From Octopus vulgaris (taxonomy: Eukaryota), in the NCBI GenBank assembly GCA_951406725.2, contig OX597839.1, positions 39,804,001 to 39,868,000 on the forward strand: a stretch of DNA of 64,000 nt, written 5' to 3'. Made by a program: the position numbers and the translations under genes. The notes under the pieces are model-generated. The model worked only from the letters and a program-made list of their open reading frames with translations, was not told where the DNA came from and did no database searches. Shown in pieces: positions 11,108 through 63,846 of the stretch (position 1 is the stretch's first letter; each line of letters begins with the position of its first letter).

Positions 11108-11306
11108 TATAGAAGGAGTTTACAGGACTAGAACTGTTTCATTCAAGAGAAATCTTCAGGAAGCACTTCAGGGGCTTCCTGAAGATTTCTCTTGAATGAA
11201 ACAGTACTAGTCCTGTAGAAGCTCCTTCTATATAATAAATTAATTTTACTCTGCTATGTATTGAGTACCTTATTTACTGTGGTTAACCCCGAATCAACCC
11301 GGGACC

Positions 11307-19803: not shown

Positions 19804-20083
19804 GTCTGTCTGTCTGTCTGTCTATCTGTGTGCCTGTCTGTCTTTCTGACTGTCTGTGACCAAAGAATTCTATCCGAATCTTTTGATTCAATCTACGACC
19901 CTTTAACAAATGTATACATCTTGCCAACATAGTCACTGAGCACTCATTGAAAAATGTAAAATATATACATAGATATATACATAATTTACAAAATAAGGGC
20001 AAAAGAAAAATTCTAATGCCAAATATGCCGAAAAAAAGACAAAATTGTCAATAACCATTATAATTTTATCCTACATTAGTTGT

Positions 20084-20118: not shown

Positions 20119-20437
<319 letters not shown>

Positions 20438-62645: not shown

Positions 62646-63156
62646 TTATTATACTATAGCCTGGCTGTGCATTGGAATTAAACCGTATGTTTCACGCTGA
62701 TGAGTTTTGAAGATTACACGTATCAAAGACGACGAGAATAATTTAACAGATGAAACAGTTTTTGAATATGTGTTGCATGACCTGTTGTATGGCTTCGTTA
62801 TTGGGTTGATACAATATGATCAAAGCGAAACAGTGTTCCATTGACCTGATGTTAATCAGGGTCTTACAAATAATAATGTTCCAGTTTATGAAGAAGTGAT
62901 TAAATCTGGTGGTGATACTTTTTCAGAATGACTGTACTCGCTTGCTGAACGAAAACCAATCAATCGCATATGAACATCGAAAATTTATCCAAATAAAATA
63001 AAAAGAGGAAGAAAGGAATGAGGAAAGAAGAGTATTTTCGCTTTAGCCTCAAGCATGAACGTGTGGTAAGAAGCTTGCTTACCAGCTAACTGGTTTCGGA
63101 TTCAGTAGAACTGCGTGGCATTTTGGCCAAGTGTCTTCTACTATAAACCCAGGGCG

Positions 63157-63218
<62 letters not shown>

Positions 63219-63222
<4 letters not shown>

Positions 63223-63801
63223 AGATAAGGGCACAAGAAAAATTTTTCTTCTGCCCTTATCTTGTAAATTATGTATAAATTTTACATTTAAAGGCATTTT
63301 TTGATATGCTGGCCATTGATAAAGTTTTTTTCCCGAAAAATTTTTATCCTATATTAATTATAAATAGATTAGTGTTCACTTCCGGATTCTATCACTCTGT
63401 GAAAGTTTCTAGTTCGAATCACACGTGTCTCGAGGTGCACCGAAGATTTTTCTATTTTAGATATATTTGGGGTACTTAAGTCTGCCCAGGACTTAGTGCT
63501 TGCTTTTTCCATGGGTATGAGTAAGTATTTCATTTATATCTCGCGTATTTGCCGCTGAAGAGGGGAAGATTTCTTATGAATTAACCCCGGAATTGGACCA
63601 ATACGGTAATAACGAATTTTTTAGAGATTTCTATCGGTTTGTTTCGAGACACATAAATTATAATGGTTATCGACAAGTTTTTTGTTTCGGCATATTTGGC
63701 ATTAGAATTTTTCTTCTGCCCTTATCTTGTAAATTATGTATAAATTTTATCTTTAAAGGTCATTGATAAAATTTTTTTCCCGAAAAAAATTTTATCCCAT
63801 A

Positions 63802-63810
<9 letters not shown>
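63219..63810 (+). mobile_element. Retrozyme/Penelope-like element: palindromic 5' end, ~465-bp unit with partial tandem repeat, one hammerhead; in (TA)n
   Basis: Palindrome 63219-63266; direct repeats 63241-63362 and 63706-63810; a dispersed fragment at 19976-20066 (minus). Confidence 0.7.
63549..63609 (+). ncRNA. Type I hammerhead fold, A13G variant
   Basis: TTGCCG [CTGAAGA] GGGG-(19 nt)-CCCC [GGA] ATTGG-A-CCAAT A CGGTAA. Confidence 0.68.

Positions 63811-63846
<36 letters not shown>

Follow-up and report, generated by a model that had tools for sequence, protein, structure and literature searches.

The repeat at 63219-63810 of the window, the 64,000-nt stretch of DNA analysed here from the microsatellite-rich, 2.8-Gb genome of Octopus vulgaris, raises the question of what kind of element leaves slightly more than one lap of a unit with a hammerhead motif between two TA tracts, and how it was written there. 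An earlier note, made from the letters alone, had read it as a retrozyme-like copy, reverse transcribed from a circular or multimeric RNA, with a hairpin at its 5' end. The features of the window that bear on this question are as follows.

63157..63218, no strand: left (AT)n target tract, from the sequence
63219..63244, (-): short inverted arm that spans unit positions 1-26 and stops 3-6 nt short of the S end
63219-63266: palindrome of the short inverted arm and main arm, 48 bp with one C/C mismatch
63241..63705, (+): complete lap of the non-coding unit (464/465 nt), differing by 3.0% from its subfamily consensus
63549..63609, (+): type I hammerhead, from sequence reading and family alignment, predicted cut after 63603
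63549-63554/63604-63609: hammerhead stem I, 6 bp
63555-63561: hammerhead core
63562-63565/63585-63588: hammerhead stem II, 4 bp, with a 19-nt loop
63589-63592: hammerhead GGAA; stem III is near-palindromic, and AUA precedes the predicted cut
63590, (+): private A-to-G in the GAAA core (A13), 1 of 105 motifs
63706..63810, (+): incomplete second lap, which carries an 18-nt deletion and reaches the long (L) end
63734..63737, also 63269-63272, (+): short (S) start/end site, internal in the main arm, from end tallies
63738..63810, (+): 'tail' from the S to the L site, ~90 nt in the consensus and shortened in the window copy by the deletion
63811..63844, no strand: right (AT)n target tract, from the sequence
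19976..20066, (-): S-ended arm of a separate short insertion of sister subfamily C, ~91 nt
20063..20081, (+): opposite, L-ended arm of that insertion, 19 nt

Much of the anatomy in the earlier note was borne out. The mismatched palindrome is present, (AT)n flanks the element on both sides, and 63241-63362 recurs at 63706-63810 with a period of 465 (6 substitutions, the second lap carrying the 18-nt deletion and a 1-nt gap). The core, stems I-III and AUA of the hammerhead can be read in the sequence, and the family alignment backs the call. The description of the element as retrozyme-like, reverse transcribed and non-coding is likewise supported, the longest stop-to-stop frames across it being 66-89 aa. 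The related fragment at 19976-20066 was found with 90% identity to the window copy, and it is 99% identical to two copies of the sister subfamily (L112/L115). Two readings were abandoned. The hairpin does not characterise the family but is a copy-specific short inverted arm, which together with the main arm makes the palindrome; nor is 63705/63706 a meaningful 'unit junction', being simply the point at which the window copy was 5' truncated.

The element belongs to a family that is not a product of chance, since a hammerhead 22-mer had 361 exact matches genome-wide and a degenerate hammerhead pattern had 2,007 across sister subfamilies, compared to 0 for both reversed controls. A search of the genome for the element gave 3,486 candidates, 40 of which were scored. 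The unit is non-coding and 464 nt long, with a GC content of 0.32-0.34. Units of subfamily A, to which the window copy belongs, lie 1.7-5.2% from their consensus; subfamily B is 85% identical to A, and further subfamilies include C and longer ones (497-nt spacing in L221). Two loci were of separate interest. Eight near-identical subfamily B insertions recur at ~20-35-kb spacing in G000:C8:106.79-106.96 Mb (L070-L079, L089), which is a large tandem segmental duplication, and at L018:1498-3021 a subfamily A arm and a subfamily B arm, both L-ended, lie ~200 bp apart and are probably two independent insertions.

Ends were mapped for 157 distinct insertions, all from subfamilies A or C, comprising a first set of 101 (19 duplicate loci dropped) and 56 new ones; a further 30 loci from subfamily B and 20 from other subfamilies stand outside these counts. 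One arm was found in 50 insertions, two divergent arms in 104 and another arrangement in 3. The 258 arms ended at L (unit position ~119-123) in 126 cases, at S (~29-32) in 105 and elsewhere in 27, so that 231 stopped at one of two fixed 3' sites ~90 nt apart. In the first set, (AT)n adjoined 129 of 148 S or L ends (73/84 L, 56/64 S). The S end of the window copy is trimmed, as are 7 of the tallied S ends. Where both ends of a two-armed insertion could be classified, L was paired with S in 77 of 81 (47/50 in the first set, p ~1e-11; 30/31 among the new insertions); 4 broke this rule, and 23 more had an unclassifiable end. The window copy obeys it, with an L-ended main arm of 1.2 laps and an S-ended inverted arm of 26 nt, as does the tiny two-armed insertion at 19976.

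By contrast with the 3' ends, the 5' ends were variable and spread across the whole unit, no position of which forms a hard 5' boundary, and tandem laps reached ~2.8 units. The tandem multimers anticipated by the earlier note were thus present. Its expectation of variable permutation points was not supported, since only the 5' ends vary, and fixed ends, which it had named as counter-evidence, occur on the 3' side and not on the 5' side. A pile-up of 5' ends near unit position 153 or 170 was considered and rejected (4/258 arms at 153, with bin rates within the general range). Junctions between arms (first set, n = 64) consisted of 42 short overlaps, 7 blunt joins and 15 with inserted bases. Two fixed ends with an inverted arm are the 'tail' and inverted-arm footprint of Penelope-like elements (PLEs).

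The hammerhead core of the family reads CUGANGA...GAAA...AUA. GAAA was found in 104 of 105 motifs and GGAA in the window copy only, under a search pattern that admitted just these two, which agrees with the earlier suggestion that the consensus is GAAA and the GGAA private. Position 63590 is A in all covering contigs of four runs presumed to be RNA. A13G is a change that abolishes catalysis in hammerheads, and the private GGAA of the window copy is likely inactivating. This copy, with its single mutated hammerhead, would be an inert family member and a dead end. An Rfam search of 63225-63805 (E ≤ 10) brought up no hammerhead, and one of the whole window gave only microsatellite-driven miRNA matches among the 150 of 451 matches listed; folding of the mutated window copy alone was not better than shuffles (z -0.71). 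The ribozyme call therefore rests on the family alignment, in which hammerhead pairing was seen in 97.3% of cells (50 of 85 distinct motifs), compared to 28-48% in slid controls, and two-sided changes between subfamilies in 6 of 17 pairs and in all three stems, both counts being inflated by relatedness of the motifs. The fold is conserved, with compensatory changes, between subfamilies that are ~85% identical. Its architecture fits the canonical animal type I hammerhead, a form that may need dimerisation (PMC4209133). Circular folds of four natural monomers gave z scores of -1.6, -3.3, -2.5 and -6.6 (40 shuffles each), values that are no more than suggestive. Two intact cores were present in only 6 of 164 arms, and since unit-length RNA could be released only from two-core copies, candidate source copies are few.

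Taken together, it is likely that the window copy represents a dispersed, protein-free 464-nt repeat with a conserved hammerhead (mutated in this copy), whose ends are fixed at two sites in (AT)n and which is written in trans by a Penelope-like RT-endonuclease. In the mechanism we propose, the PLE enzyme would cut both strands of an (AT)n tract, and each target 3' end would prime cDNA synthesis inside the RNA, one at L and one at S, 90 nt apart. Both cDNAs would travel back along one RNA haplotype, crossing the ribozyme cut site and in some cases exceeding one lap, then halt at variable points and be joined head to head, mostly via short overlaps. The RNA itself would be released at unit length by the two hammerheads of rare long copies and then circularised. 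Purified anole PLE protein does cut and extend both strands, and the tail is set by a pair of internal sites at which its RT starts; the two strands showed no difference in start site in those in vitro data, and the rule of one start per strand (L+S) is thus not explained by that study (PMC11167929).

Evidence on the template came from variants. At sites polymorphic within subfamily A, the arms of one insertion agreed at 135 of 147 (79 expected if independent) and its laps at 93 of 99 (54 expected). Rare variants were shared at 0.0026 per site between arms, 0.0015 between laps and 0.00011 between insertions, and sharing was 13-22 times commoner within than between insertions (L018, which joins two subfamilies, was left out). 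All 8 shared variants of the new set occur in 3-5 insertions each; they therefore mark small lineages and show one source haplotype, and are not proof of one molecule. Among arms unselected for the hammerhead, 3 of 54 stopped within 5 nt of the predicted cut site, compared to an average of 7.9% per bin, which indicates that the template does not usually end as a cut linear monomer would. The corresponding figure for hammerhead-selected arms (6/201) is biased because sampling required the hammerhead. A shared haplotype and read-through of the cut site fit a circle and uncut multimers alike. The four presumed RNA runs, as assembled contigs, match the unit only piecewise and do not bear on circularity, strand or level; the junction expected of a circular RNA is also present in tandem DNA. 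RNA editing was considered as a source of the shared variants and rejected, as A>G was not enriched among them (7/40 vs 49/443).

On balance we lean slightly towards a template of unit-length, hammerhead-released and circularised RNA over an uncut multimer or template jumping. A bolder version is put forward tentatively, with clearly less than an even chance: the PLE enzyme would copy a single ribozyme-made, covalently closed 464-nt circle from both ends of the cut (AT)n at once, with starts 90 nt apart, running beyond the opposite primer and across the ligated cut site. Every two-armed insertion would then record a single circle, with the tail acting as a portable signal through which any small circle could enter the genome. 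Retrozyme circles are documented in mussel, coral and axolotl (PMC7229834), and 8 of 9 Xenopus retrozyme dimers were uncleaved in vitro (10.64898/2026.07.22.740005).

The strongest competitor, a real possibility that we still rate as the lesser one, retains PLE mobilisation but has a linear template, through uncut read-through of multi-lap copies or template jumps, the hammerhead having some other role or being a remnant. Unprocessed RNA is the main substrate of the anole PLE in vitro, where ribozyme cleavage is unnecessary (PMC11167929). Partial tandems of the autonomous PLEs in this genome are near-identical (99-100% over ~460-510 bp) and need no circle, and the missing stop at the cut site suits uncut RNA equally well. 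Set against this are the rarity of long two-core source copies, the rare variants that laps have in common (11 in 7,202 sites), the lack of a hard 5' boundary at any unit position, and the maintenance of the hammerhead through compensatory changes.

For the inverted arm, the proposed priming from both DNA ends competes with fold-back self-priming of cDNA or an antisense template, which we consider unlikely. Antisense-template self-priming was proposed for rotifer Penelope (PMC3846280), and the perfect palindromic junction of the window copy would suit it, as would arm starts ≤11 nt apart in 11 of 104 two-armed insertions (~5 expected) and an over-representation of T>C (ribozyme strand) among variants shared by both arms (13/40 vs 48/443). 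However, the T>C excess in the first set (11/32 vs 31/310) did not reach significance when the new set was taken by itself (2/8 vs 17/133). In 20 of the 77 L+S insertions each arm covers sequence absent from its partner, which argues against simple copying of one arm from the other by fold-back, and the different fixed ends of the two arms are left unexplained by folding back.

The PLE enzyme invoked here has candidates in the same genome, which holds intact autonomous elements with an RT plus a GIY-YIG domain at the C terminus in 781-aa frames. These autonomous PLEs also terminate in (AT)n and occur as partial tandems; their two ends lie ~38 nt apart, and the one two-armed case seen among them (L096) is likewise S+L. 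A CxxC before the endonuclease suggests, from sequence, the Neptune or Nematis type (PMC8557442). Most conspicuous is a young family (L091-L106, e.g. G000:C16:20834500-20841500) with many intact RT/GIY-YIG frames, a long upstream region and a 38-nt tail. Its 3' region abounds in repeated motifs that we take to be CCAAT- and CRE-like, and a hammerhead pattern search of its repeat found no motif. Hammerhead-like motifs of other kinds lie in the 3' regions of further Penelope-like families (L108:4306-5000, L034, L030:986-1210, L201), all of which end in (AT)n; in one the core reads CCGAAGA. No match was found between the unit and 10 clusters of PLE 3' regions, scoring having covered the best 150 among 6,136 GIY-YIG candidates; because no sequence-matched PLE emerged from these, we infer the autonomous partner from the footprint.

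Attachment of the unit to a long ORF-bearing element, which the earlier note had named as grounds for rejecting its reading, was seen nowhere: a PLE ORF was joined to the unit at 0 of 157 loci and at 0 of the 20 loci of other subfamilies. PLE fragments lay nearby at 11 of the 157 loci, none joined to the unit, and are separate insertions in the same tracts. These counts speak against the units being solo pseudo-LTRs, that is, 5'-truncated ends of an unsampled ORF-bearing Penelope-like element, as does the fact that arms longer than one unit run into another lap of the unit and not into an ORF. The anatomy is identical to that of truncated PLE ends, and a fraction of the ~2,000 motifs was inspected; even so, we hold this to be more improbable still than folding back. 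Random entry into a circular RNA, giving permuted copies with a family-specific terminal hairpin, would account for copies that are longer than one unit and read across the cut site, but it is hardly credible given that arms end at two sites and the hairpin is specific to one copy.

We assign the window element, probably written in trans as proposed above, to the animal non-LTR retrozymes (non-autonomous Penelope-like elements) as a new member. As in those described previously (PMC7229834; 10.64898/2026.07.22.740005), the repeat is short, low in GC and non-coding, its hammerhead is of the canonical type I, monomers are dispersed along with some dimers, motifs number in the thousands, and autonomous PLEs exist in the same genome. 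Tandems with at least two complete hammerheads exist in the family (the 6 arms noted above), the window copy not being one of them. In those traits that sequence can test, the family belongs with the animal non-LTR retrozymes, and a circle and cleavage are predicted. Its unit of 464 nt compares with 170-400 nt (PMC7229834) and 51-972 bp (10.64898/2026.07.22.740005). Unlike the published retrozymes, the family has a long, 19-nt loop 2 and consists mostly of ≤~1 lap in two-armed form. The consulted parts of these two sources contain no insertion-end analysis and name no cephalopod. Our literature search found no report of a cephalopod retrozyme or of retrozyme insertion ends, and Repbase or Dfam entries or supplements may already hold the family.

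With endonuclease-positive Penelope-like elements (PMC8557442, PMC3846280, PMC11167929, PMC4209133) the family has in common 5' truncation, partial tandems, an adjacent inverted copy, a tail confined to one of the ends, (TA)n targets and a hammerhead in the repeat. It differs from them in lacking an ORF, in having a canonical and not a minimal hammerhead, and in that no matching autonomous partner was found; its tail is ~90 nt, compared to 30-40 nt in published PLEs and 38 nt in the autonomous family of this genome. MRC1-type non-autonomous elements of Chlamys (PMC8557442) are likewise ORF-less PLE derivatives with head-to-tail insertions, but their 3' end resembles that of the autonomous partner and their clade is without canonical hammerheads, whereas the octopus family is so far the opposite on both counts.

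PLEs have been proposed as the mobilisers of animal retrozymes (PMC7229834; 10.64898/2026.07.22.740005), a case argued, in the material drawn on here, from hammerheads in common, from co-occurrence and from sequence similarity in Xenopus and not from insertion scars. The link between retrozymes and PLEs is already published (10.64898/2026.07.22.740005), and the additions made here are the long tail and the pairing rule. The family offers an insertion scar that can be counted, in its two start sites, its 77/81 pairing and its read-through of the cut site, and this scar makes template circularity and strand-specific choice of start testable in the published in vitro PLE assay.

Several further observations concern the window itself. 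A very abundant SINE-like repeat lies directly left of the TA tract, at 63050-63160 (contig depth ≤81,000). Two long, near-perfect inverted repeats at 11124-11214 (~90 bp, also in L057) and 20122-20261 (~140 bp) are probably MITE-like. Penelope elements are known for intron retention. Within the unit, a splice-donor-like GTAAGT lies upstream of the hammerhead at 63520-63527, where GTAAGTAT was found in 101 of 141 occurrences (duplicates counted), and a pyrimidine-rich stretch with a terminal AG lies downstream of it at 63680-63705. Just past the L end, 63359-63400 contains motifs that we take to be TATA-like, ETS-like (CACTTCCGG) and initiator-like; these may form an internal promoter, which would be carried only by long arms or by copies of more than one lap.
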